The notes beneath the pieces are model-generated. The model was given only the letters and a program-made list of their open reading frames with translations, searched no databases and was not told the origin of the DNA. Shown one piece after another: positions 11,700 through 44,295 of a stretch of DNA of 64,000 nucleotides; the first letter of the stretch is position 1; every line of letters starts with the position of its first letter. Source of the stretch: Polyangia bacterium (GTDB lineage: Bacteria > Myxococcota_A > Polyangia > Fen-1088); the NCBI GenBank assembly GCA_035578045.1, contig DATJWP010000096.1:18623-82622 (forward strand), in the 5' to 3' direction. The position numbers and the translations under genes were made by a program.

Positions 11700-13760
11700 A
11701 TGAACGGAACCGACCTGGTCGTCGACCTGGCGCTCATCATGCTGGTGGCGGCGGTCACGACGGTGCTGTTCCAGCGCCTGCGCCAGCCGGTGGTGCTGGG
11801 TTACCTGCTGGCGGGCGTCATCGTGGGCCCGCACTTCCCGGTCCCGCTGTTCGCCAACGAGGACGTCGCCCACCACCTGTCCGAGCTGGGCGTCGAGCTG
11901 CTGATGTTCTCGCTGGGGCTCGAGCTGAGCCTGGGCAAGCTGGTCGAGGTCGCCCCGATCGCCGGCGTCGTCGCGGTCATCGAGTGCAGCCTGCAGCTCT
12001 GGTCCGGCTACGCGCTGGGCCGGGCGCTGGGCGGGTCCTCGGTCGAGAGCCTGTTCGTCGGCGCGATGCTGGCCATCTCGAGCACCACCATCATCGTCAA
12101 GGCCTTCGCCGAACAGAAGATCGGCGGCCGCTTCGCGGACCTGGTGTTCGGCGTGCTGGTGGTCGAGGACCTGGTCGCGATCCTGTTGCTGGCCATCCTG
12201 ACCGCCATCGGTTCGGGGGCGAAGCTGTCGCCGCACGCGCTGGCCACCACCGTGGCCCGGCTGGTCATCTTCCTGCTCGCGACGCTGGCGTTCGGGATGC
12301 TGATCGTGCCGCGCGCGGTGCGGGCGATCCTGCGGCTGCAGCGGGCCGAGACGACCGTGGTGGCGGTCATCGGCCTTTGCTTCGGCTTCTCGCTGCTGGC
12401 GCGCGCGTTCGGCTACTCGGTGGCGCTGGGCGCGTTCCTGGGGGGCGCGCTGGTGGCCGAGTCGGGCGAGGGGCACCAGATCGCCGAGCTCATCGCCCCC
12501 GTGCGCGACATGTTCGCCGCCATCTTCTTCGTGTCGGTCGGCATGTTGATCGATCCCAAGGTCATCGTGGCGCACTGGGGGGTGATCCTGGCGATGATGG
12601 CGGTGGTGGTCGTGGGCAAGGTCGTGGGGGTCTCGGTCGGCGCGTTCCTGACCGGCAACGGCGTGGCCACGTCGGTCCGCGCCGGAATGAGCTTCGCGCA
12701 GATCGGCGAGCTGTCGTTCATCATCGCGGCGCTGGGGCTGTCGCTGGGCGCGGTCCGCCCCTATCTGTACCCGGTGGCGGTGTCTGTCTCGGCGCTGACC
12801 GCGCTGACGACGCCGTGGTTGATCCGGGCGGCCGGCCCGGTTGCGGCGTTCCTGGACCGGCGGCTGCCCCACGCCGTGCAGACCTATGCCTCGCTGTACG
12901 GCGCCTGGATCGACCGCCTGCGCGAGGTGCGGCAGCAGGGGTCCAGCTGGGCGCGGATTCGCCGTCTGGTGTTGCGGCTGCTGGCCGACGTCTGCGGGAT
13001 TGCCGCCGTGACGATCGGGGCCTCGCTGGCGTTCCCGGCGGTCGAGCGCGCGGCCGCGCGTCTGGGCTGGAACCCCAGCTCGCTGGTCGCTCGGGCGGGC
13101 CTGATCGCCGTGGGCGTGCTGCTGGCGGCGCCGTTCGGCGTGGGCGCCGTCCGGGTGGCGCGCGCGCTGGGCCTGCGCCTGGCGCTCGAGGCGCTGCCCG
13201 CGGACCAGACCGTCGATCTGTCGGCGGCACCGCGGCGCGCGCTGGTGGTGACCATCCAGATCGCCATCCTGCTGGCTGCCGGTATTCCACTGCTGGCGGT
13301 GACGCAGCCGTTCGTGCGGTCGGCGGCCGGGCCGGTGCTGCTGGTGCTCTTGCTGGCCGCGCTGATCGTTCCGCTCTGGCGGAGCGCGACCAACCTGGAG
13401 GAGCACGTCCGGGCCGGCGCCCAGGTGGTGGTCGAGGAGCTGGCCGCGCAGGGGCGCCGCGGGCACCAGCCGCCGGCCCGCCCCCCCGCGGTCGAGCGCG
13501 TGCTGGCGGGCATCGGCGGCGCCACGCCGGTCCGACTGGCGGCGGGCTCGCCGGCCATCGGGCGCACGCTGAAGCAGTTGGCCTTGCGGGGGCTCACGTC
13601 GGCGGCGGTGGTGGCGATCGATCGCGGCCAGGCCGGCCTGATCTTTCCGACCGGCGACGAAGCGCTGGCCGAGGGAGACGTGCTGGTGCTGACCGGCAGC
13701 CGCGAGGCCCTCGAGGCTGCCGAAAAGTTGCTGAAAATTGCCCGGGCGCCCGGCGATTGA
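11700..13760 (+). CDS. Cation:proton antiporter (CPA2/Kef-type) with a C-terminal RCK_C/TrkA_C domain
   Basis: In-frame ATG at 11700 within track ORF 11505..13760. The N-terminus VVDLALIMLVAAVTTVLFQRLRQPVVLGYLLAGVIVGP is followed by about 12 TM helices. The C-terminus has GRTLKQL.LR..AVVAIDR..GDVLVLTG. Confidence 0.85.
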   Translation: MNGTDLVVDLALIMLVAAVTTVLFQRLRQPVVLGYLLAGVIVGPHFPVPLFANEDVAHHLSELGVELLMFSLGLELSLGKLVEVAPIAGVVAVIECSLQLWSGYALGRALGGSSVESLFVGAMLAISSTTIIVKAFAEQKIGGRFADLVFGVLVVEDLVAILLLAILTAIGSGAKLSPHALATTVARLVIFLLATLAFGMLIVPRAVRAILRLQRAETTVVAVIGLCFGFSLLARAFGYSVALGAFLGGALVAESGEGHQIAELIAPVRDMFAAIFFVSVGMLIDPKVIVAHWGVILAMMAVVVVGKVVGVSVGAFLTGNGVATSVRAGMSFAQIGELSFIIAALGLSLGAVRPYLYPVAVSVSALTALTTPWLIRAAGPVAAFLDRRLPHAVQTYASLYGAWIDRLREVRQQGSSWARIRRLVLRLLADVCGIAAVTIGASLAFPAVERAAARLGWNPSSLVARAGLIAVGVLLAAPFGVGAVRVARALGLRLALEALPADQTVDLSAAPRRALVVTIQIAILLAAGIPLLAVTQPFVRSAAGPVLLVLLLAALIVPLWRSATNLEEHVRAGAQVVVEELAAQGRRGHQPPARPPAVERVLAGIGGATPVRLAAGSPAIGRTLKQLALRGLTSAAVVAIDRGQAGLIFPTGDEALAEGDVLVLTGSREALEAAEKLLKIARAPGD

Positions 13761-13791
13761 AATTTATCGCCCGGAGCGCGTTGTCACGGGC

Positions 13792-15201
13792 ATGACCACC
13801 ATGAGATCACGCGCGCTTGGCTTCGTTCTGTTGTGGGGAGTCGCAGTCGGCTGCGGGAGCTCGGGATCGAGCGAGGGTACCGGAGGGTCGGGCGGTCACG
13901 CGACCGGCGGCCACCTGGGGACGGGCGGCAGCGTGGGCAGTGGCGGCAGCGTGGGCTCGGGTGGTCACGCCGGCAGCGGCACCGGCGGCTCGGCGACCGG
14001 CGGTCAGGCCGGAAGCAGCGTGGGCTCGGGCGGTCACGCCGGCAGCGGCGCCGGCGGCTCGGCGACCGGCGGCAACGAAGGCGGCACCGGCGGCATGGCC
14101 GGTGGCGGCGGTGGTCACGCGGGCGGCGCGGGCGGTGCGGCTGGCAGCGCGGGCGGCGGCGCTGGTGGTCACGCGGGTACGGGCGGCGCGACCGGCACCG
14201 CCGGTGGCGCGGGTGGCGGCGGTGGTCACGCGGGCGCGGGCGGCGCGGCTGGCAGTGCGGGCGGCGCGGCCGGAAGCTCGGCGGGCGCCGGTGGCGCGGC
14301 CGGCGGCGGCGCGGGTGGTCACGCGGGTGCGGGCGGTGCGGCTGGCAGCGCCGGTGGCGCGGCCGGTGCCAGCGCGGGCGGCGCGGGTGGCGCAGCGGGC
14401 GGTGCTGGTGGCGCGGATGCGGCGCTGATCCGCGGCGGGTATCTGGTGAAGAGCGTGCTCGGCTGCACCGGTTGCCATGGCAACGATCTGTCGGGCAAGG
14501 ACTGCTTCGCGGGCAGCACCAGCGGCCCCGATTGTCTGAGCAGCGCGAACCTGACGCCGGACGCGACCGGTCTGATGGGTGTCAGCGATCAAGCGATCAA
14601 GGACGCGTTCAGGGTGGGCAAGGATCCCGATGGGTCGGGTAACTATCTGTTCTCGAACATGCCCTACTACCAGTTCACGCCCCTGACCGACGCCGACGCC
14701 GATGCGATCGTCGCGTACTTGAAGTCGGTGCCCGCCGTCTCGCACACGGTCGCGGCCGACGTCGGCATGTACGCCGAAGCCAATCGAAAGACTTCTCCCG
14801 ACTGGACGGGTGTGACGCTGTCGAGCGCCGACAACGGACAGTACATGGCGACGCTCACCTGCATCACCTGCCACACCGTCCGCGCCTCCGGCACCCCGAC
14901 GCACATCGATCCGACCAAGGCCTTCCAGGGGGGCTTCACGGTCACGGTCAGCGGACACGCCATTCAGACCTCCAACCTGACGCCCGACGCCACCGGCATC
15001 ATGGGCTGGACGGTCGATGAGATCGCCAACACGATCATCAACGATCTGGACAGGTCGACCCCGACCCCGAAGACGATCTGCGGGATGCGCGCGCTGTCCG
15101 GCATGCATACGTCCGACGCCGACGACATCGCCACCTACCTGCTGGGGTTGACGCCGGTGGTGAACAACATCACCCAGACCTGCAGCGCCGCCGGGTTGTG
15201 A
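13792..15201 (+). CDS. Di-heme cytochrome c lipoprotein with a long Gly/Ala/His-rich linker
   Basis: In-frame ATG at 13792 and lipobox AVGCG. Residues 22-208 are low complexity. There are two CxxCH motifs (CTGCHG, CITCHT). Confidence 0.8.
   Translation: MTTMRSRALGFVLLWGVAVGCGSSGSSEGTGGSGGHATGGHLGTGGSVGSGGSVGSGGHAGSGTGGSATGGQAGSSVGSGGHAGSGAGGSATGGNEGGTGGMAGGGGGHAGGAGGAAGSAGGGAGGHAGTGGATGTAGGAGGGGGHAGAGGAAGSAGGAAGSSAGAGGAAGGGAGGHAGAGGAAGSAGGAAGASAGGAGGAAGGAGGADAALIRGGYLVKSVLGCTGCHGNDLSGKDCFAGSTSGPDCLSSANLTPDATGLMGVSDQAIKDAFRVGKDPDGSGNYLFSNMPYYQFTPLTDADADAIVAYLKSVPAVSHTVAADVGMYAEANRKTSPDWTGVTLSSADNGQYMATLTCITCHTVRASGTPTHIDPTKAFQGGFTVTVSGHAIQTSNLTPDATGIMGWTVDEIANTIINDLDRSTPTPKTICGMRALSGMHTSDADDIATYLLGLTPVVNNITQTCSAAGL
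13951..14072 (+). repeat. Tandem 69-nt (23-codon) duplication inside the cytochrome c linker
   Basis: gtgggctcgggtggtcacgccggcagcggcaccggcggctcggcgaccggcgg at 13951 recurs at 14020. I counted 2 mismatches over about 53 nt. Confidence 0.7.
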
Positions 15202-34902: not shown

Positions 34903-36633
34903 ATGAAAAGGTCTGCGCTGTCGGCGGCTCTGGTCACGCTGCTCGGGCTCGGTGCCTCCGGCACCGCCCGGGCGACCGACTACTACGTGGCCACGGACGG
35001 GAGCGATTCGAACCCCGGCACGATGGACATGCCGTTCGCCACCCTGCAGAAGGGGGCCAGCGTGGCGGCCGCGGGCGACACCGTCTACATCCGGGGCGGG
35101 ACCTACAAGATCACGACGCCCGCCAACAGCGGCGCGGGGATCAACTTCACGAAGAGCGGGACCTCGGACACGAACCGGATCAAGTACTGGGCCTACCCGG
35201 GAGAGACCCCGGTCTTCGACTTCACGAACCTGGTCATCTCGACGACCGGCTACACCATGGGGTTCGTGGTGAACGCCAGCTACCTGCACTTCAAGGGGCT
35301 GGAGATCTGCTGCGTGCCGATGAACATGTTCTCGAACAACGGCATCTCGGTGGATGGCAGCTCCGGCCACGACATCTTCGAGCAGCTCAACATGCACCAC
35401 AACAGCGGCAACGGGATCTTCGTGGGCAACAAGAGCGGCGGCGGACACCAGATCGTCAACTGCGACGCGCACGACAACTACGACGCGACGTCCAACCAAG
35501 GCCAGGGGCAGAACGCCGACGGCTTCGGCGTCCACTACCAGACCACGGGCGACACGACGATCATCCGCGGCTGCCGATCCTGGTGGAACTCCGACGACGG
35601 CTACGACCTGATCAACCAGGAGGTCCCCGTCACCGTCGAGAACTCCTGGGCGTTCGGCAACGGCTACGCCATGTACGGCACCTTCAACCCGGCCGACGGG
35701 AACGGCAACGGGTTCAAGATGGGGTCCAGCCAGACCGGCATCCGCCACCTGGTGCAGAACAACGTCGCCTGGAAGAACAAGGCCAGCGGCTTCTACGCCA
35801 ACCATTCGACGGGCGGGAACACCTGGTACAACAACACGTCGTTCATGAACGGGACCCAGTACAACATGCTGGCCAGTCCGGCCGGCGATCCGAACACGAC
35901 CATCACGTTGACCGGATCGCTGGTTCACATCATGCGCAACAACATCGGCTACCCGAACAAGAACACCAACATGACGGGCGTCGACACCATGTTCAACACC
36001 TGGGACCTGAGCATCACGCCGGCCGGCAGCGACTTCGCCAGCATCGCCGATCCCAGCGTCTCGATGACCGGCATGGCCATCGAGGGGATGGGCGCGCTCG
36101 GCCCGCGCCAGGCCGACGGCAGCCTCCCCGACGTCGACTTCCTGACGCTGTCGGCAGCCAGTCGAATGATCGACAAGGGGACTGACGTGGGCCTTCCGTA
36201 CGTGGGAGCGGCGCCGGATCTGGGCGCCTACGAGTACGGCGCGACGCCGGCCAGCGGCACGGGCGGGACCGGCACGGGGGGAACCGGGACCGGCGGGACC
36301 GGGACCGGCGGAACCGGCACGGGAGGCAAGGCCACTGGCGGCGGCGGGATCGCCGGCTCTGCGGGGCGGGCCGGCACCGGCGGCGCCGGCGTGGCCGCCG
36401 GCGGTCGCTCGGGGACCGGCGGCACGGCTCCCGTCGACGCCGGCACGGCGTTGGGGACCGGCGGCACGACCACCGGGACGGGCGGCTCGGGGACCGGCGG
36501 CGCCACGGGCACGGACGAATCCGGCTCGGCAGGCTGCGCGTGCGCCGTCGAGGCGCGACCGCCGGCCGGCGCGCTCGCGCTCGCGGTGGCCCTCCTGGGC
36601 GCCTTCGTGGTTCGGCGCCGCCGCTCGCGTTGA
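34903..36633 (+). CDS. Secreted right-handed beta-helix polysaccharide-lyase-like protein (pectate lyase superfamily) with a MYXO-CTERM tag
   Basis: Signal peptide. DYYVATDGSDSNPGT..PFATLQKG..GDTVYIRGGTYK is followed by beta-helix repeats. A GTGGT linker precedes the C-terminus GCACAV..LAVALLGAFVVRRRRSR. Confidence 0.75.
   Translation: MKRSALSAALVTLLGLGASGTARATDYYVATDGSDSNPGTMDMPFATLQKGASVAAAGDTVYIRGGTYKITTPANSGAGINFTKSGTSDTNRIKYWAYPGETPVFDFTNLVISTTGYTMGFVVNASYLHFKGLEICCVPMNMFSNNGISVDGSSGHDIFEQLNMHHNSGNGIFVGNKSGGGHQIVNCDAHDNYDATSNQGQGQNADGFGVHYQTTGDTTIIRGCRSWWNSDDGYDLINQEVPVTVENSWAFGNGYAMYGTFNPADGNGNGFKMGSSQTGIRHLVQNNVAWKNKASGFYANHSTGGNTWYNNTSFMNGTQYNMLASPAGDPNTTITLTGSLVHIMRNNIGYPNKNTNMTGVDTMFNTWDLSITPAGSDFASIADPSVSMTGMAIEGMGALGPRQADGSLPDVDFLTLSAASRMIDKGTDVGLPYVGAAPDLGAYEYGATPASGTGGTGTGGTGTGGTGTGGTGTGGKATGGGGIAGSAGRAGTGGAGVAAGGRSGTGGTAPVDAGTALGTGGTTTGTGGSGTGGATGTDESGSAGCACAVEARPPAGALALAVALLGAFVVRRRRSR
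36256..36330 (+). repeat. 15-nt (GTGGT pentapeptide) tandem coding repeat, 5 units
   Basis: The units are ggcacgggcgggacc, ggcacggggggaacc, gggaccggcgggacc, gggaccggcggaacc and ggcacgggaggcaag. Confidence 0.65.
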
Positions 36634-37072: not shown

Positions 37073-38209
37073 ATGCGACGAAGCCTGGCCGCGTGGTCCG
37101 CGCTGGCGATGGCGCTTTCGGCCTGTTCGTCCTCGAGCGGCGGGTCCGGGTCCGGCGGGTCCGGAGCCGGCGGAACCGGGGGCCAGGCGGGCGGACCCGG
37201 CCAGGCCGGTACGGACGGTCAGGCAGGTAGGGCCGGACAGGCCGAGGCGACGGGCGGCGCCGTCGCCTCGACCGGTGGCATCGGCGCGGCCGGCTCCGGT
37301 GGACGCGGCGATGGGGCCGGCGGAAGCGGCGGTGGCGCCGGGGCAGCGGCCGGCGGCGCCGGCGGACGCTCCGCGGGCGGTTCACCTGGTGCCGGCGGCA
37401 GCGGTTCGCAGGTCTGCGGCATGGGCGCCGAGAACGACAACGTTGCTTTGACCTGCCCGAACGGACAGGTCATCGCCGGCGTCGTGTTCGCCAGCTTCGG
37501 AACGCCGGCCGGAGCCTGCGGGGCGTTCACGGCGGGCGCCTGCGACGCGACCGACTCCGTCCCGCTGGTCAATGCCCTCTGCGTCGGGCGCTCCGCCTGC
37601 ACCATCCCGGCCAGGAACGACGTGTTCGGCGACCCGTGCGACAAGACAACGAAGAGCTTCGCCGTCGAGGTCAGCTGCGGAGCGGTGGCCAGCGCAAACA
37701 GCGGCTGTCCGTTCTCGGGCCACGTCACCTATACGCTGACCAGGTCGGCGAACCCCACCGCCGACGAGCAGACCGCCTACGACGAGATCACGGTCGCGAT
37801 GGACGCCGCCGTCGCCATGTACAACTGCTACGCGAACATCACCAAGGCCGACACCGTCACCTACAACACCGGCGTCCAGACCGCCGACGGCAACGTCAAC
37901 GGCTCGATCCGCTTCGGCCCCGACTCGACGTACAGGACGATGCCGACCTCCATGCACGAGATCGGCCATACCGTCGGGATCGGCAGCGCGCCGTTCGACG
38001 CGCTGGTGAGCAACGGCATCTTCACGGGCACGAACGCCACCAATCAGCTCCGCGCGATCACGGGCAACGCGACCGACCAGGTCAACGCCGACCAGATGCA
38101 CTTCTGGCCCTACGGCCTCAATTACGACAGCGAGTACCACGACATCAACGACGGCATCGACCACTGCAAGATGGTCACGGCAATCCGCAAGGACATGGGG
38201 ATGAACTGA
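37073..38209 (+). CDS. Secreted lipoprotein with a SUEL-type (galactose-binding) lectin domain plus an HExxH domain
   Basis: ATG at 37073 within track ORF 36680..38209. Lipobox LSACS. Lectin motif [24 protein letters not shown]...[22 protein letters not shown]. The C-terminal domain carries [11 protein letters not shown]. Confidence 0.7.
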
Positions 38210-38211
38210 CC

Positions 38212-40794
38212 GTGGCCGACCTACATCCCACCCTGCGCGAGCTGGCGGCCGGCCTCACGCTGGCCACCGGCCAGAAGCACAAGGTCGTCGTCCCCAAGCT
38301 GGACGTCGACACGATCGAGATGGAAGACATCCACTTCCACCACAACAGCGACGTGGTGCTGCCCTGGGGGTATGGCGAGGAGACCGGGCTCGACGACGAC
38401 CAGGACCGGCTGTCCGGCATCTCGGTGATCGCCGCGGCCCTCCGTTATGCCAAGGACAACCCGTCGAAGAAGCTGCTGCTGGCGGGCCACACCGATTCGT
38501 CGGGCGAGTCCGACTACAACCGAAAGCTGTCGGAGGCCCGCGCCAAGACCACCAAGGCGCTGCTGACGGACGACAAGTCGGGCTGGGGCAGCCTGTGCGT
38601 CGAACACCAGACGGTCGAGGACCTGCAGCAGACGCTGCTCTGGGTCGCGGCGACCCACGGCTGGCCGTGCAACCCGGGCCCGATCGACGACACGATGGGC
38701 CCGAAGACCCAGGCGGCCCGCCGGGCGTTTCGCAAGCGCTACAACGACGAGTTCTCCGCTTCACTGCCGCTCGACGCCGAGGAGACGTCAGCCCAGGACT
38801 GGGAAGCTTTCTTCGACCTCTTCGATCTCGGCCTGCAGGACGAGCTGGGCGACGACCTGAGCGCGTGCCGGTCGGCGCTGTCTTTCTACAGCCCGGACAT
38901 CCTGGCCTGCGGCGAGGACTTCGCCGAGGGGGACAACAGCCCGGCGGGGATGCGGTCGGTGGCGGACCGCCGGGTCGACATGCTCTTCCTCGATCCCTCG
39001 AAGCCGTATCCGGATTTCTTTTCCGAGAAGCCGCCCGGCAATTCCATCTATGGCCCCGTGCCGCTGGTCAAGCGACGCTACCTCCCGGTGGCTCCGCCGG
39101 TTCAGCTCGCGCTCAAACTGACGGCCATCGAGGGGCTGTACCCGCCCGGCTTCAAGCAGGACGGCGACGTGGCGCCCAAGGCCTCCGGCTACAATGAAGG
39201 TTATCTCAGCGAAGACGATCTGGGCCGGGTCTTCGTCAACCACAAGCCGCGCACCGACCCCACCCAGGCCTGGGACGACGTCGTCACCAAGGACACGCAA
39301 TACATCGAGCTGGAGGCTTCCGTCGAGCTGGTCCAGGGCCCGAAGATCCCGCCCGAGGCGCGCGTCCAGTGGGAATGGTTCGATCCCAACGACAAGGACC
39401 ACCCGGACACGAACGCGCACGGCGCGCTGGTTCCCGACCAGGTCGACGTGGACGGCCGGGCGCGCAGCATGCTGAACCGCGGGACGTGCGACTTCCCCAA
39501 GCCCGGCAGCAAGGACATGGCCCGCTTCGGTCAGGCGGGCGATTTCGGTTTTGCCGACGCGGCCACCGTGAAGCTCGCCGACACGCAGATCACGGACGGC
39601 ACCAGCCGGGTGCGGCTGCACGTCAGCAACGTCGCCGGCGACAACTTCGTCGTCGTGGCGCGCCTCAAGAACTCGCCGCGCGTCGCTCCTTCGGGGCAGG
39701 TGCGCACCGGGGTGATGACGGTGTGGAAGCGGATCGACGTCGAGTACGTGAAGATGGCCGGCGCCTTCTCGCTGCCGGTCGATCAGGTGCCGCCGTTCTT
39801 CGAGCCGGCGCGCGTCCAGATGGACTTCGCCCCCGAGCGCCCGGTGCCGTCCCAGCACTTTCTCACCAAGCTCGACAAGGATAAGGAGTCGGCCTGCGCG
39901 ATGTACGCCACGGCTTCGAATGGCGAATTCAAGTTAGAAGGGAAGCCCGGATGGTTCTTCCTGGCGGCGGCCGAGCGGTGTTCCAGCGAGAACGCTAGCT
40001 CACCCAGCGATGGTGGCCCGAAGACGGTTTACCGGGGCAAGGCCCGGGTGGCCCAGGCGAGCGGAGGCGGAGAGAACTGGGAGAAGCTGGTCGTCGATCA
40101 GGTCATCACCGACAAGGTCGCGATCGTTACCGTGCACGACGTCGAGGGCGGTCCAAGGGGCTTCCAACCGATTTGGAAGAAACAGGTCACCGGCAACCAG
40201 ACGCACCTGCACCTGTGGGGCATCGACTACCAGTCGGACTTCGAGGTACCGCGTGGCCAGAAGACGGGTTTGCTCGGCGCTCCCGGGAAGGGCGGCGCCT
40301 ACGACAAGACGGACAACTACTACCTCCAGCACCGGTTCCGGTACCCTTCCAGCGCTTGGGAGCCGGGCGGGATGGGGTTCGCCGACGAGGTGTTCATCAA
40401 AGCGGCGCCGCCGGGAACAACGGAGACCACCGGCCTCAGCCCCAGCGCGCGCTTCGCGGGGCAGGAGTACTTCGCGGGCCGGTTGTTGATCTTCACGCGC
40501 GCCTTCGAGGCGACGTCACTAGACGCCGACGACGTGGTCAGCACGATCGTCCACGAGTTCACCCACGCCTTCGGCTATCCGCACAAGTGCGGCTATTACG
40601 GCTGGCCGCAACCGCCCGAGTTCAGCTGCTCGATGAATTACTTCCTCACCTGGATCTACAAGGTCGGGACGCGCGAGCTGCAACGGTTCTTCTTCGGCAC
40701 GTCCGGGGGGCACCTCTGTTCGAAGCACCTGTCAGGCGTCCGCGAGGTGAACCTGGAAGACAACCCAGCTATCTGGAAGTGGAGCGGCTCGTGA
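38212..40794 (+). CDS. OmpA-like plus peptidoglycan-binding-like plus large metzincin-motif protein, no signal peptide seen
   Basis: GTG start 2 nt after the previous stop. OmpA_C-like region IHFHHNSDVVLP..LLLAGHTDSSGESDYNRKLSEARA. PG_binding-like region LQQTLLWVAATHGWPCNPGPIDDTMGPKTQAARRAF. Near the C-terminus, HEFTHAFGYPH (HExxHxxGxxH) is followed by CSMNY (Met-turn-like). Confidence 0.7.
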   Translation: MADLHPTLRELAAGLTLATGQKHKVVVPKLDVDTIEMEDIHFHHNSDVVLPWGYGEETGLDDDQDRLSGISVIAAALRYAKDNPSKKLLLAGHTDSSGESDYNRKLSEARAKTTKALLTDDKSGWGSLCVEHQTVEDLQQTLLWVAATHGWPCNPGPIDDTMGPKTQAARRAFRKRYNDEFSASLPLDAEETSAQDWEAFFDLFDLGLQDELGDDLSACRSALSFYSPDILACGEDFAEGDNSPAGMRSVADRRVDMLFLDPSKPYPDFFSEKPPGNSIYGPVPLVKRRYLPVAPPVQLALKLTAIEGLYPPGFKQDGDVAPKASGYNEGYLSEDDLGRVFVNHKPRTDPTQAWDDVVTKDTQYIELEASVELVQGPKIPPEARVQWEWFDPNDKDHPDTNAHGALVPDQVDVDGRARSMLNRGTCDFPKPGSKDMARFGQAGDFGFADAATVKLADTQITDGTSRVRLHVSNVAGDNFVVVARLKNSPRVAPSGQVRTGVMTVWKRIDVEYVKMAGAFSLPVDQVPPFFEPARVQMDFAPERPVPSQHFLTKLDKDKESACAMYATASNGEFKLEGKPGWFFLAAAERCSSENASSPSDGGPKTVYRGKARVAQASGGGENWEKLVVDQVITDKVAIVTVHDVEGGPRGFQPIWKKQVTGNQTHLHLWGIDYQSDFEVPRGQKTGLLGAPGKGGAYDKTDNYYLQHRFRYPSSAWEPGGMGFADEVFIKAAPPGTTETTGLSPSARFAGQEYFAGRLLIFTRAFEATSLDADDVVSTIVHEFTHAFGYPHKCGYYGWPQPPEFSCSMNYFLTWIYKVGTRELQRFFFGTSGGHLCSKHLSGVREVNLEDNPAIWKWSGS

Positions 40795-41627
40795 GCCAGG
40801 AGCAAGGCCAGGAAAAAGGTGAGGATCAGACCGAGTTGAGCTTGCGGCTGCGGGCACCGGCCACGGCGACGGCGGGGCTGCTGCCGCTGTTCGTCGAGGT
40901 GACTCTGGCGAACGACAACGAGGCGACCGACTACTACGCCCTAACGAACTGCGATCCCTGGTCACCGCCGTTCCCGGTGGAGTTCACGTTGAGCGGGGAG
41001 GGTGGAGAAGTCACCTTACCGGCGAGATCCACCGCCACCGCCGGCGCGACGCCGACCGGATTCGATCTCCTGCCCCACCAGGCCCGAACTTTCGTGTTGG
41101 ACCTGTCGGAGCTCGAGACGGACGTGCCGCCCGGCGCCTGGCGGCTCTCGGCCCGCTGGGTCATGCGCCACGAGCAGCCGCGATCGTCGCCGGTCTCGAT
41201 CACTTTCGAGGCGGGCGACCCCGCCGACGCGCCGCTGATCCGGCGGTTGCGTGGCCTCGGTGGCGGGACCTCTCCGTCCTGGGCGAACCTGATCCAGGAG
41301 CGGGCCGCGCTTGACGACGAGGCCTTGCGGCGGCTGTCGGCGTCCAGCCGCCGGACGCTGCTGCCCTACCTGATCCTTCACGAGGCCGTGCATGGTCCCC
41401 AGCCCCTGTCGCAGCTCCCGCTCGAGTTCCTATCGGCGCACTTCCAGGGTCCCTGGGCCAGCGAGGCCAGCGTGCTGACGTACGAGCTCTTCTCCGCTCG
41501 GGCGGTGCCCGATCTCGCTGCAAGGCGGGCGGCCATCCTCGCGCGCTGGCCGGGTGTCGAATTCCGGCTGGACCAGGTCGATCGGGGCGCGGGCCTGCTC
41601 ACGCTCTGGCGCGAGGAATACCGATGA
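40791..41627 (+). CDS. Hypothetical protein, translationally coupled partner
   Basis: The GTG overlaps the upstream stop (GTGA). 278 aa, no signal peptide and no recognised motif. Confidence 0.55.
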   Translation: MSQEQGQEKGEDQTELSLRLRAPATATAGLLPLFVEVTLANDNEATDYYALTNCDPWSPPFPVEFTLSGEGGEVTLPARSTATAGATPTGFDLLPHQARTFVLDLSELETDVPPGAWRLSARWVMRHEQPRSSPVSITFEAGDPADAPLIRRLRGLGGGTSPSWANLIQERAALDDEALRRLSASSRRTLLPYLILHEAVHGPQPLSQLPLEFLSAHFQGPWASEASVLTYELFSARAVPDLAARRAAILARWPGVEFRLDQVDRGAGLLTLWREEYR

Positions 41628-41995
41628 GGTCTATCGCCGTCCTATTGCTGGGCGCCCTGAGCGCCTGCCAGTACGCCGTTCCCGAGGCGCAGGGTGCGGC
41701 GCCGCAGCGCCGAGACGACGCTGGGCTCACCGATGCGGCGGCCAAAGAGCGCCAGCCGGACCGGCGGTCATCTAAGGATTCCCTGGTCGGCCTCACCCGC
41801 AAGCAGCTCCTGGCACGTCGCGGGGCGCCGACCAGGAAGGAAGGCGGCCGATGGATCTACACGTCCGACCAGTCGGGTTGCCGCGACAGGATCGTCAACG
41901 AGGTCGTCACTTTTGAGGGCGATCGGGTCGCGCGCGTGACGCTGCAATTTCGCCATACCACCGAGGATTGCGGCATCATGCCGGGGCTCCGCTGA
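41624..41995 (+). CDS. Small lipoprotein (BamE/SmpA-OmlA-like fold suspected)
   Basis: The ATG overlaps the upstream stop (ATGA). Lipobox LSACQ. The segment GLTRKQLLARRGAPTRKEGGRWIY resembles SmpA_OmlA. Confidence 0.6.
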   Translation: MRSIAVLLLGALSACQYAVPEAQGAAPQRRDDAGLTDAAAKERQPDRRSSKDSLVGLTRKQLLARRGAPTRKEGGRWIYTSDQSGCRDRIVNEVVTFEGDRVARVTLQFRHTTEDCGIMPGLR

Positions 41996-41997
41996 GC

Positions 41998-42885
41998 ATG
42001 CCCGCCGTCGACCAGTCGGTGCGGTTGCTGGCGGCTTCCGGGCCGGTCACGGCGGTGCTCGGGTCGCCTGGCCGCGCGGGCGACACCAATGCGATCCGGA
42101 CCAACGAGGCGCGGGCGATCTTGCTGGAGCTGCGGCGCGACGAGGCCTGGCCGGCGCTGGTCGCGCTGCATGAGCTGGCGATGGGCTTCGAGGTTCATCT
42201 TCCGTCTCGGGTCGCGTCGGAAGAGCTGGCGGAGGGGATCGAGGAGGCGCTCGAGGCCGGCCGGCTCTGGTTCTACCGAGGCTGGGGCGGGCTGGCGGGC
42301 GGAGCGGCGGACGGGGCCGGCGCTTTCGCCAATGGGCCCGCCGCAGAGCTGGCGCGCGACCTGGTGGGCGGGCAGGGCGACGTGTTTCTCGACGGGCGCC
42401 AGTATCGCCTGGTGCCCGCCGGCATCGTGAGCGCGGGGTTCGTGGGGGACGACTACCGCCCGGTCGCGCCGGCCGAGGCGCGTGGCCTGATCGAGCGGAT
42501 GGCGGCGCGCTTCACCCGCCGGCCCGACTTCCGTGGACGCTGGGAGCAGGCCGCGGGGCTGCTGACGGACGGTAGCGACGAGAACGGGCTGATGCTCCTG
42601 CGCTACACCCCGCCCAGCGGGGGCGTCGCGCCCGCCGACGAAGCGCCCGCGACGACCCCTTCGCAGCTCAAGCCCGCGATCGCGCCCGAGTACTGGATCG
42701 AGATCGAGCTGGTCTACGACGACGACACACCCTTCGACGGGAGCAGCCAGCTCCAGCTGCCGGGCGGGCGCACCATCGACGCCACGCCCGACGAAAGCGG
42801 GGTGGTCCGGGTCGACGGGCTGACGGCGGACGGCGACTGCAAGCTGACGTTCCCGGACATCGCGGCGGCGCTCGGTCCGTCCTGA
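41998..42885 (+). CDS. Hypothetical protein, last gene of the five-gene operon
   Basis: ATG 2 nt after the previous stop. 295 aa. The C-terminal 70 aa are beta-rich (YWIEIELVYDDDTPFDG..VVRVDGLTADGDCKLTF). Confidence 0.55.
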   Translation: MPAVDQSVRLLAASGPVTAVLGSPGRAGDTNAIRTNEARAILLELRRDEAWPALVALHELAMGFEVHLPSRVASEELAEGIEEALEAGRLWFYRGWGGLAGGAADGAGAFANGPAAELARDLVGGQGDVFLDGRQYRLVPAGIVSAGFVGDDYRPVAPAEARGLIERMAARFTRRPDFRGRWEQAAGLLTDGSDENGLMLLRYTPPSGGVAPADEAPATTPSQLKPAIAPEYWIEIELVYDDDTPFDGSSQLQLPGGRTIDATPDESGVVRVDGLTADGDCKLTFPDIAAALGPS

Positions 42886-42955: not shown

Positions 42956-44116
42956 GTGCGACGTCTGCTCTCGGTCCTTGTCGTCACGTTGCTGGCGTCC
43001 CGGGCGGGCGCCGAGCCCGACCGTCAGGCGCGGGCGGCGCTCGGCCGCGCGATCTTCTTCGATCGCGCCCTGTCGGAGCCGGCCGGGACCAGCTGCGCCA
43101 GCTGCCACGATCCGGCGCGGGCATTTTCGGGCGACAACGGATCGGGCGCGGGCGTGCCGGCGGGGAGCCGGCGCGGCCAGCTGGCCCGGCGCAGCACACC
43201 TTCGCTGCTGTACCTGAAGTTCGTCCCGCCCTTCCGGTTCGTGGGCGAGCCGGAAAAGCACGCGCTGGACCAGGAGCCGTACGGCGGCTTCTTCTGGGAC
43301 GGGCGCGCCAACACGATCGCCGAGCTGACGCAGCAGCCGCTGCTGAACCCGCGCGAGATGAACAACCGCGACCTGGCGCAGATCGCGCGCAAGCTGCGGC
43401 GCGCGCGATATGCGCCCGCGTTCCTGAGGGAGTTTCCCGAGGCGTCCCGCGACGACGGCCAGGCGGTGGCGGCGCTGGGCATCGCCGTCGAGGAGTTCCT
43501 GACCTCGCCCCAGATGGCGCCGTTCTCGTCGAAGTACGACGACTTCGCGGCTGGTAAGGCCACGCTGTCGGTGGCCGAGGCGCGCGGGCTGGCGCTGTTC
43601 CGCGATCGCAAGCGCGGCAACTGCGTCCGCTGCCACACGCTCTCCAGCCACCCGCCCTCCGTCGAGCGGTCGCTGTTCACCGACTTCGGGTACGAGGTGG
43701 TGGGCGCTCCCCGCAACCGCCACTTGCCCCGGGGCTTCCGCCAGCCCGACGACCGCGGCCTGTGCGAGCGCACCGACACCAACGTCCCGTCCAACGAGAC
43801 GCAGTGGTGCGCCAGCTTCCGGACCCCGTCCTTGCGGAACGTCGCCCTGCGCCCCAGCTTCATGCACAACGGCGCCTTCACCAGCCTGCGCGACGTGATC
43901 GTCTTTTACGCCACGCGGGCCACCGACCCGCGACGCTGGTACCGCCAGGCGCTGTATGACGATACGCCCGTGCCATACCGCGGCCTGATCGACACGGTCA
44001 GCGTCCCTTACAACCGCAAGCCGGGAGACCCGCCGGCCTTCACGGACGCCGAGATCGACGACCTGGTGGCGTTCCTGCAGACCCTGACCGACCGGCGACT
44101 GCCCGAACGTCCGTGA
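42956..44116 (+). CDS. Di-heme cytochrome c peroxidase (CCP/MauG family)
   Basis: Signal peptide. Heme motifs CASCHD and CVRCHT. Conserved FFWDGRA and SLRNVA..FMHNG. Confidence 0.85.
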   Translation: MRRLLSVLVVTLLASRAGAEPDRQARAALGRAIFFDRALSEPAGTSCASCHDPARAFSGDNGSGAGVPAGSRRGQLARRSTPSLLYLKFVPPFRFVGEPEKHALDQEPYGGFFWDGRANTIAELTQQPLLNPREMNNRDLAQIARKLRRARYAPAFLREFPEASRDDGQAVAALGIAVEEFLTSPQMAPFSSKYDDFAAGKATLSVAEARGLALFRDRKRGNCVRCHTLSSHPPSVERSLFTDFGYEVVGAPRNRHLPRGFRQPDDRGLCERTDTNVPSNETQWCASFRTPSLRNVALRPSFMHNGAFTSLRDVIVFYATRATDPRRWYRQALYDDTPVPYRGLIDTVSVPYNRKPGDPPAFTDAEIDDLVAFLQTLTDRRLPERP

Positions 44117-44152: not shown

Positions 44153-44295
44153 ACATGCGCCGGTCATCTTGCGCGCGTTCGGCGCGGTCTTCGTTCTGCT
44201 CGATCTCAACCTTCGTCTTTTGGGCCTGATCCTGGGCGCCTTCACCCTTCGGGGCTGTTGACCCTCCTCGGCCAGATCGGCGCGAAGCGACGCTC

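Follow-up and report, generated by a model that had tools for sequence, protein, structure and literature searches.

A candidate polymorphic-toxin cassette from a Polyangia bacterium, with a metzincin-like protein and a putative adaptor sharing its C-terminal module with VgrG spikes

Zinc metallopeptidases and peptidoglycan (PG)-binding folds have both been described among the parts of type VI secretion systems (T6SSs). In VgrG2b, a transthyretin-like (TTR) domain is followed by a HExxH metallopeptidase; the enzyme works in the periplasm, where the protein PA0261 blocks it, and Tpe1 is a cargo homologue of the VgrG2b toxin with an immunity protein, Tpi1 (PMC6899460). LysM and PG_binding_1 domains recur in vgrG loci as free proteins, at the C-terminus of VgrG or at the N-terminus of toxins, and LysM was shown to bridge VgrG and an effector, thereby loading it (PMC10673891, Commun Biol 2023). 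The present analysis concerns a 64,000-nucleotide stretch of DNA (the window) from a contig annotated 'MAG TPA: Polyangia bacterium' (MAG, metagenome-assembled genome), in which five adjacent genes, referred to throughout as g1–g5, lie on the plus strand. Four of them, g2-g3-g4-g5, are probably, if by no means certainly, an orphan polymorphic-toxin cassette made up of a T6SS-delivered cargo effector (g2), its immunity protein (g3), an accessory lipoprotein (g4) and an adaptor (g5). A first-pass annotation of the locus could match it to no described system. T6SS metallopeptidase effector-immunity pairs (PMC6899460) and PG-binding-type loading domains in vgrG loci (PMC10673891) have been described, however; the cassette fits this framework and is, therefore, not a new kind of system.

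Like VgrG2b and Tpe1-Tpi1 (P. aeruginosa, A. baylyi; PMC6899460), the cassette links a putative HExxH zinc metallopeptidase to a TTR-like spike adaptor, and the toxin would be neutralised by a protein encoded next to it; the Tpe family, too, includes both spike-fused and free cargo forms. In contrast, the solved C-terminal structure of VgrG2b is not matched by the profile of the g2 protease domain in a search of PDB sequences at E ≤ 10. Here the TTR-like module, termed g5C, belongs to a separate adaptor, g5; the effector does not carry it, and no linked VgrG was seen to do so. Moreover, g2 adds an OmpA-like/PG-binding (OmpA/PGB) module and a 400-aa beta region, and g3 has no signal peptide, whereas PA0261 must be periplasmic.

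A likeness to the LysM and PG_binding_1 discrimination domains (PMC10673891) is seen where g5C accompanies a spike: in all four loci sampled, VgrG(-)g5C is followed immediately by a gene for a LysM and/or PG_binding_1 protein. The module on g2 differs from those domains in being a composite, with a PG_binding_1-like bundle inserted in an OmpA-like domain, in being paired with a TTR-type adaptor family, and in occurring in Myxococcota, Acidobacteriota, Planctomycetota, Verrucomicrobiota and Bacteroidota; in the earlier work, PG_binding_1 was reported in gamma-proteobacteria only and OmpA was not listed (PMC10673891). As summarised in PMC6899460 and PMC10673891, the TTR domain that connects VgrG1 and Tle1 of enteroaggregative Escherichia coli (EAEC) is likewise a small beta-sandwich at the spike C-terminus that recruits a specific cargo. 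By comparison, g5C of the cassette is detached from VgrG and joined through a TPSQ linker to a novel N-region of ~200 aa, and fusions to OmpA/PGB together with gene adjacency suggest that it may bind a specific cargo effector.

Other delivery systems resemble the cassette in their general logic. MIX, FIX and RIX effectors combine a shared N-terminal domain with varied toxins, and related stand-alone proteins act as adaptors or tethers; their domains are unrelated to those described here and come from Proteobacteria, mostly Vibrionaceae (PMC10435454). TsxE/TsxI of Myxococcus xanthus is a myxobacterial T6SS effector with a PG-binding (LysM) domain and an adjacent immunity gene, although the gene for TsxE, an amidohydrolase, immediately follows vgrG2, whereas g2 is of metzincin type and has no linked vgrG (PMC5801462). 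The Polyangia-type bacterium Minicystis rosea has 61 vgrG paralogues (PMC5801462). Myxobacterial genomes also contain dispersed polymorphic toxin-immunity cassettes of another type, the SitA/SitI toxins of outer-membrane exchange (OME). SitA is made as a lipoprotein, having both a signal peptide and a lipobox, and is delivered by TraAB. In contrast, g2 has neither signal peptide nor lipobox, and delivery of the OME/SitA type was rejected for want of the latter.

The five open reading frames (ORFs) have exactly the positions and junctions first reported for them. A 2-nt gap separates g1 (37073–38209, +) from g2 (38212–40794, +), which has a GTG start and shares a GTGA overlap with g3 (40791–41627, +); g3 overlaps g4 (41624–41995, +) at ATGA, and a further 2-nt gap precedes g5 (41998–42885, +), the last of the five. 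The boundaries of g2–g5 are also those of the public gene calls, in which the start of g1 is shorter. Originally proposed as a five-gene unit, the locus recurs elsewhere with four genes, as g1 adjoins g2 in this window alone. The recurring core is g2 with g3, usually accompanied by g4 and/or g5, and it is found in differing genomic surroundings even among relatives that are 70–78% identical.

About 29 full-length g2 homologues were collected, all from metagenomes or MAGs, and DNA downstream of a g2 homologue was available for 29 distinct loci. In every one of these 29 informative loci the next gene after g2 is g3, which mostly overlaps the g2 stop, and it is present in tandem duplicate in three loci (L001, L002 and L020). 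Given this constant adjacency and the duplications, g3 behaves like an immunity gene, and it is quite likely that g2 and g3 pair as toxin and inhibitor. The 278-aa g3 protein, proposed as the cognate immunity protein or inhibitor on the basis of synteny and GTGA coupling to g2, was described at the outset as having no recognisable motif, and this is borne out: it belongs to no family in Pfam or NCBIfam, and its profile found nothing significant among PDB sequences. Most g3 proteins have no signal peptide, as judged by eye rather than with a predictor (as were all signal peptides in this work), and one is present in L028, L031, L036, L037, L040 and the second copy of L020. In L002, both g3 copies and part of g2 are split into many short frames at 12600–14400 of the ENA contig, which looks like an assembly or frameshift error, or decay.

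The order of the remaining genes varies. Here it is g2-g3-g4-g5, whereas L006 and L012 have g2-g3-g5, and L018 and L026 have g4-g5-g2, with g3 next in L018 and the sequence of L026 ending inside g2. The closest relatives have g4 after g3 (L008, L009, L014, L016 and L032), and a more distant clade has it upstream of g2 (L003, L018 and L026). Similarly, a g5-type protein is encoded downstream of g3 here and in L006 and L012, and directly upstream of g2 in L017, L018, L021, L025, L026, L027 and L030. In one clade, g2 homologues begin with a short g5-type protein as an N-terminal fusion. For instance, the free 202-aa short g5 of L018 aligns end to end with residues 4–180 of the fused effector P0027 (35% identity, E = 8e-27).

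The 860-aa g2 protein comprises the OmpA/PGB module at its N-terminus (residues ~25–262; 38284–38997, +), a beta-sandwich middle (residues ~290–690; 39079–40281, +) and a metzincin-like zinc-peptidase domain, the proposed toxin (residues 691–860; 40282–40794, +). The initial description of an OmpA-like and PG-binding-like protein with a metzincin signature is upheld by domain matches and by conservation of the motifs. The OmpA match (PF00691) scores 28.9 bits against a gathering cut-off of 27.2, and PG_binding_1 is annotated on several homologues. According to the alignment and a model of g2 made with AlphaFold2 (AF2; mean predicted local distance difference test, pLDDT, 77.7), which also supplied secondary structure for the module, the OmpA-like domain spans GHTDSSG...YNRKLSEARA to the closing strand RRVDMLFLD, and the PG_binding_1-like helical bundle is inserted within it. 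The Asp/Arg-containing OmpA segment GHTDSSGESDYNRKLSEARA is present in g2. Because the GHTDSSG...YN segment is deleted in six of the 27 aligned homologues, however, PG binding is probably dispensable in at least part of the family. The g2 N-terminus, VADLHPTLRELAAGL..., has no hydrophobic leader, a feature kept in 27 homologues on inspection. With no signal peptide on g2, g3 or g5, all three are evidently made in the cytoplasm, and no export signal was found in g2 that would place it in the periplasm of the producer.

Within the C-terminal domain, the zinc-binding signature HEFTHAFGYPH (HExxHxxGxxH; 40552–40584, +) and the candidate Met-turn SCSMNY (40624–40641, +) are present and conserved. 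Invariant or near-invariant positions are H781, E782, H785, G788, H791, C793, C806, M808 (invariant, in the Met-turn), N809, C836 and H839, and in the full AF2 model residues 691–860 form a beta-sheet followed by the HExxH helix. Reprolysin_5 is matched below threshold by nine of ten protease-domain members, with a best E of 6.9e-5, and the Reprolysin_2/4, Astacin and Matrixin models are also matched below threshold; no Pfam or NCBIfam family is reached above threshold. A search of all PDB sequences with the g2 protease profile returned just the active sites of MMP-14 and NPCBM at E ~1. Among the aligned homologues, the extended HExxHxxGxxH motif is degenerate in P0031 alone. This 679-aa protein, which has no OmpA/PGB module, reads QGICQNFGLPH in place of the zinc motif and is possibly an inactivated or repurposed copy.

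The middle region of g2, for which Foldseek found pilin- or integrin-like Ig folds and nothing else, co-occurs with the protease domain, and the two stay together where the N-terminal module is replaced (L023, L031, L034 and L036). The alternative N-termini include a domain of ~100 aa (L023 and L034) and cadherin/VCBS-like repeats (L036). By eye, the L023 and L034 N-termini resemble the N-region of g5, a resemblance unconfirmed by hidden Markov models (HMMs) of that region (g5N) and of its short form (short-N). An insertion of ~110 aa is seen in the protease domains of P0029 and of proteins encoded at L028 6953–9949, L031 3–2237, L034 334–2787 and L037 1–714. It looks LysM-like by eye, a candidate likeness for which no PDB match was obtained. 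The g3 partners of P0029-type proteins have signal peptide-like N-termini, unlike those of the main clade.

The proposed adaptor g5 provides an indirect link to secretion spikes. Its N-terminal region (residues 1–205; 41998–42612, +), the proposed docking part, is helical or mixed, and g5C (42682–42873, +), resembling TTR and CarboxypepD_reg domains, is the module also found as a C-terminal extension of VgrG. The beta-rich C-terminal module noted from the translation was thus confirmed by profile comparisons. In an exhaustive profile search, the g5 family reached 1893 clusters at 50% identity (E ≤ 1e-3); it is unannotated and lacks signal peptides throughout. The ~200-aa N-region has no known relatives, a g5 profile found nothing significant among PDB sequences, and the first sub-domain of the N-region is common to the ~190-aa short g5 proteins. 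In the cultivable strains Archangium violaceum Cb vi76 and A. gephyra, g5 genes are of this short form alone (L072, L073), and the g2 cassette is lacking. Longer relatives include fusions of g5 with OmpA, with or without PG_binding_1, in eight out of ten cases. In the linker between the two parts (window 42640–42675) lies TPSQ, with P221 and S222 at least 90% conserved in 44 diverse members. Neither VgrG-g5C fusions nor the small g5C proteins encoded after vgrG have TPSQ, which could be a docking or cleavage site.

g5C itself is a 60-aa module with sub-threshold Pfam matches to CarboxypepD_reg and SpaA. Residues 233–288 of the window g5 share 47% identity over 58 residues with residues 712–768 of a VgrG (E = 2e-11). 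When two g5C peptide patterns were run against species-representative genomes, 42 loci were obtained from Myxococcota, Acidobacteriota, Verrucomicrobiota, Planctomycetota, Desulfobacterota, Gemmatimonadota and Bacteroidota, and VgrG is encoded within 8 kb in 24 of them. A protein of 635–809 aa ends in g5C in eight loci; six of these fusions are Pfam-verified VgrGs (Phage_GPD down to E = 2.9e-101, Phage_base_V, Gp5_trimer_C), and the other two match a VgrG profile built for this work. In nine or ten further loci, a g5C protein of 120–155 aa is encoded directly after vgrG. Five such genes of 120–135 aa (L051 3172–3576, L064 7818–8195, L077 7830–8237, L078 7797–8195 and L083 4788–5186) start with SGSAGSAVSP...EADxADPGE, resembling the linker of VgrG-g5C fusions, and look like VgrG C-termini that have split off.

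The OmpA/PGB module is similarly shared with spike proteins. P0038 combines a CIS_spike_tip domain (PF19267, 26.8 bits, cut-off 24.1) with two g5C modules and OmpA/PGB, and its modules match g5C with an hhalign probability of 93%. A 513-aa protein of L065 joins OmpA and PG_binding_1 to Phage_base_V (E = 1.3e-19), and L082 encodes, side by side, a ClpV-like ATPase, a short g5, an OmpA/PGB/g5C protein, a LysM/PGB protein and VgrG. Unrelated C-terminal regions follow the module in P0032–P0037 and in two further proteins, one encoded in L003 (458 aa) and one in L057 (1359 aa). These placements suggest that OmpA/PGB behaves as a shared N-terminal trafficking module and not as a wall anchor. Swappable toxins on a constant trafficking module, and the converse, are the signature of polymorphic toxin systems. 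The exchangeable N-modules and C-termini seen here therefore amount to polymorphic-toxin behaviour.

Two further proteins or gene sets with this module deserve mention. In P0034 (1277 aa), the OmpA/PG_binding_1 N-module is joined to a different and long C-terminal region in which HECGH occurs, pointing to a further zinc-peptidase cargo in this delivery class. Beside P0038, on the opposite strand (L043 6196–9758, −), are encoded a 405-aa OmpA/PG_binding_1 protein, a 301-aa protein of unknown type and a 482-aa LCAT/PGAP1-type lipase, which may be a further effector set on the same handle.

The small lipoprotein g4 (123 aa) has the lipobox LLGALSAC and a 65-aa C-terminal domain with two cysteines that are invariant in the alignment; all g4 homologues carry an export signal. 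It was first annotated as a BamE-like small lipoprotein, of which the lipoprotein part stands and the likeness to BamE/SmpA_OmlA is not confirmed: nine family members gave no Pfam match, and the best PDB profile match, OmlA 2pxg, is non-significant at E = 0.95. We propose that g4 is a periplasmic accessory protein or a second immunity protein.

Gene linkage, fusions, domain sharing with spike proteins and a conserved catalytic motif are the evidence in hand, and from them we infer toxicity, neutralisation by g3, T6SS-dependent export, binding partners and target compartment. Under the proposed mechanism, g2 would be a cargo effector made in the cytoplasm and then mounted on a VgrG/PAAR spike whose genes lie elsewhere in the genome. 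The OmpA/PGB module would serve as the loading handle and possibly also hold g2 on the target cell wall, and the beta-sandwich and metzincin-type protease would form the toxic part, which probably cleaves proteins of the recipient envelope or other essential proteins. Fusion order and adjacency make g5C, either on VgrG or on free g5, the likely partner of OmpA/PGB. The N-region of g5 may then dock g5C and the effector on the spike in trans, which would account for g5 with its N domain being found at orphan cassettes and rarely beside vgrG. As a specific cognate inhibitor, g3 would bind and neutralise the protease. One can speculate, as the most parsimonious view, that it does so before export or on delivery to the cytoplasm and that g4, or g3 where it is exported, shields the periplasm. 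The disulfide-bearing, extracytoplasmic g4 may add periplasmic protection. Of the options offered by the first-pass annotation, a toxin with immunity and chaperone partners is the one favoured by the comparative evidence.

Several observations weigh against a T6SS cassette. T6SS genes, among them those for VgrG, PAAR and Hcp, are absent from the 64-kb window and from the fetched flanks (up to 10 kb, less at contig ends) of every g2 locus. The spike link is indirect yet repeated, consisting of g5C on VgrG and OmpA/PGB on Phage_base_V and CIS_spike_tip proteins. Free-standing g5 with its N domain is found beside vgrG in just one of seven such loci, and g4 is missing from several loci with long flanks (L001, L006 and L028). 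The g3 proteins of this clade have no signal peptide. Immunity proteins that act in the periplasm are normally exported, and a PG-binding protease would be expected to act in that compartment, which is why a cytoplasmic g3 counts as a difficulty. The metzincin assignment is one at the level of motifs and sub-threshold profiles. An AF2 model of the protease region by itself, from ten sequences, was unusable (pLDDT 36), and Foldseek with the full g2 model gave fragilysin as its sole protease-fold match, a weak one (E = 0.037).

Given the lack of T6SS genes adjoining any g2 locus, the same logic of toxin, immunity protein and adaptor could be tied to a different carrier, namely another contractile injection system (CIS), extracellular or cytoplasmic. 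P0038 begins with PF19267, a family named for CISs generally, and LysM-type proteins are core parts of extracellular CIS (eCIS) particles (PMC10673891). Such a carrier is nonetheless unlikely, as spikes that bear g5C have VgrG architecture of the T6SS type, one cluster includes the ClpV-like ATPase, and sheath, tube or baseplate genes were not seen beside g2 or g5 loci. It is rather improbable, too, that g2 leaves the cell by lysis, in vesicles or through an unknown exporter as a secreted or predatory protease, silenced by g3 inside the producer and tethered to prey walls by its PG module. Myxobacteria are predators with many secreted hydrolases, which speaks for such a protease, as do the cytoplasmic g3 of this clade and the repeats of a kind typical of secreted proteins that precede the same toxin in L036. 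The VgrG C-terminal module on its partner g5 is left unexplained, however, along with the fusions of OmpA/PGB to the OB (oligonucleotide/oligosaccharide-binding) and tip domains of spikes.

The idea given most weight in the first-pass annotation, a resident envelope machine in which a PG-anchored protease and its partners remodel the wall of the producer, is now very unlikely. While g4 is indeed a lipoprotein and the OmpA-like and PG_binding_1-like domains have the usual Asp/Arg-containing motif, several features count against such a machine, namely the lack of signal peptides on g2, g3 and g5, the placement of OmpA/PGB on varied C-termini, and the loss of the GHTDSSG...YN segment from six homologues. 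The genomic context of the cassette also differs among close relatives, g1 is not syntenic, and domain swapping with duplication of an immunity-like gene are traits of conflict systems. A conflict confined to the cell, for example in anti-phage defence, with g2 as a self-directed protease restrained by g3 and never exported, would suit three large proteins that are cytoplasmic by sequence and a tight pairing reminiscent of toxin-antitoxin genes. We regard it as the most improbable of the alternatives, since some g3 and all g4 homologues have export signals, PG-binding domains would have no substrate in the cytoplasm, and the links to spike proteins would go unaccounted for. A prophage origin was rejected as well: no phage genes lie near g2 loci, and they were seen solely at an unrelated locus (L046).

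Horizontal acquisition had been suspected from an apparent excess of A/T-ending codons in the block relative to its flanks, for example at 39900–40000, and neither point is sustained. The window has a G+C content of ~71%, and the G+C content at third codon positions (GC3) of 16 flanking genes is 0.897 ± 0.053, against which the block is no outlier (z-scores: g1 −0.10, g2 −0.03, g3 −0.77, g4 −1.73 and g5 +0.29). Positions 39900–40000 are a local GC3 dip (0.76) within g2, for which the gene mean is 0.895. The dip in G+C at 38–41 kb is due to second codon positions (GC2), with a g2 GC2 of 0.449 that results from amino-acid composition. The compositional case for transfer was thus rejected, as GC3 is like that of the flanks.

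A scan for promoters and terminators detected no promoter, and the interval from g5 to the following gene contains no terminator. The sole terminator-like hairpin 3′ of the block (44172–44186, +) lies beyond a cytochrome-c peroxidase gene (42956–44116), which may be co-transcribed with g1–g5.

The first gene of the row, g1, is a co-oriented neighbour and not a member of the cassette. It was correctly read as a lipoprotein with a SUEL lectin and a HExxH motif: SUEL_Lectin (PF02140) is matched with E = 3.6e-18 and 66.1 bits (cut-off 31.4), PDB 5h4s is matched with E = 3.9e-31, and both the lipobox LSAC and HEIGH at residue 295 are present. In the Pfam and NCBIfam searches of all five proteins, this lectin and the OmpA domain of g2 were the only matches. 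It falls outside the conserved module, as g1 is absent from every other g2 locus collected, and its closest homologues (83% and 71% identity) have unrelated neighbours, namely FBPase or polysaccharide-lyase genes. The 165-aa C-terminal domain with HEIGH is a large family of its own in Sorangium and Polyangiaceae (P0194–P0313), placed after Gly-rich linkers and SUEL lectin or CBM2 domains. Certain members bear the label 'PE-PGRS family protein', and two homologues lie just 3′ of a polysaccharide-lyase-like gene. Elsewhere in the window (34903–36633, +) is encoded a Pel9A-like beta-helix protein whose end consists of Gly/Thr-rich repeats and then, in order, GCACAV, a hydrophobic segment and RRRRSR, a tail that looks like a MYXO-CTERM-type sorting signal.

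The novelty of the cassette lies partly in its protein families, as neither Pfam nor NCBIfam has a model for the putative toxin, its inhibitor, the lipoprotein or the adaptor. Also new are the composite OmpA/PGB handle, its pairing with a detached VgrG-type TTR adaptor, and a spread over phyla where T6SS cargo has hardly been studied. A more tentative idea, for which we claim rather less than an even chance, is that OmpA/PGB and the g5 family together form an unrecognised route for loading effectors on spikes, in which a PG-binding fold is re-used as a docking handle and, in the g2 clade, protection is split between g3 in the cytoplasm and g4 in the periplasm. The proposed route spans Myxococcota, Acidobacteriota, Planctomycetota, Verrucomicrobiota and Bacteroidota.

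To our knowledge, T6SS effectors and their loading rules are known almost wholly from Proteobacteria. The g5 adaptor family and the OmpA/PGB N-module provide two searchable effector markers for Myxococcota, Acidobacteriota, Planctomycetota and Verrucomicrobiota, and the cassette adds a candidate metzincin-type toxin family together with its putative inhibitor family. Annotation of such genes as 'OmpA family protein' is misleading. The cassette also poses a puzzle, namely a toxin with cell-wall-binding domains whose universal partner, g3, is cytoplasmic, and its solution could point either to PG-binding folds acting as loading handles or to a division of immunity between compartments.

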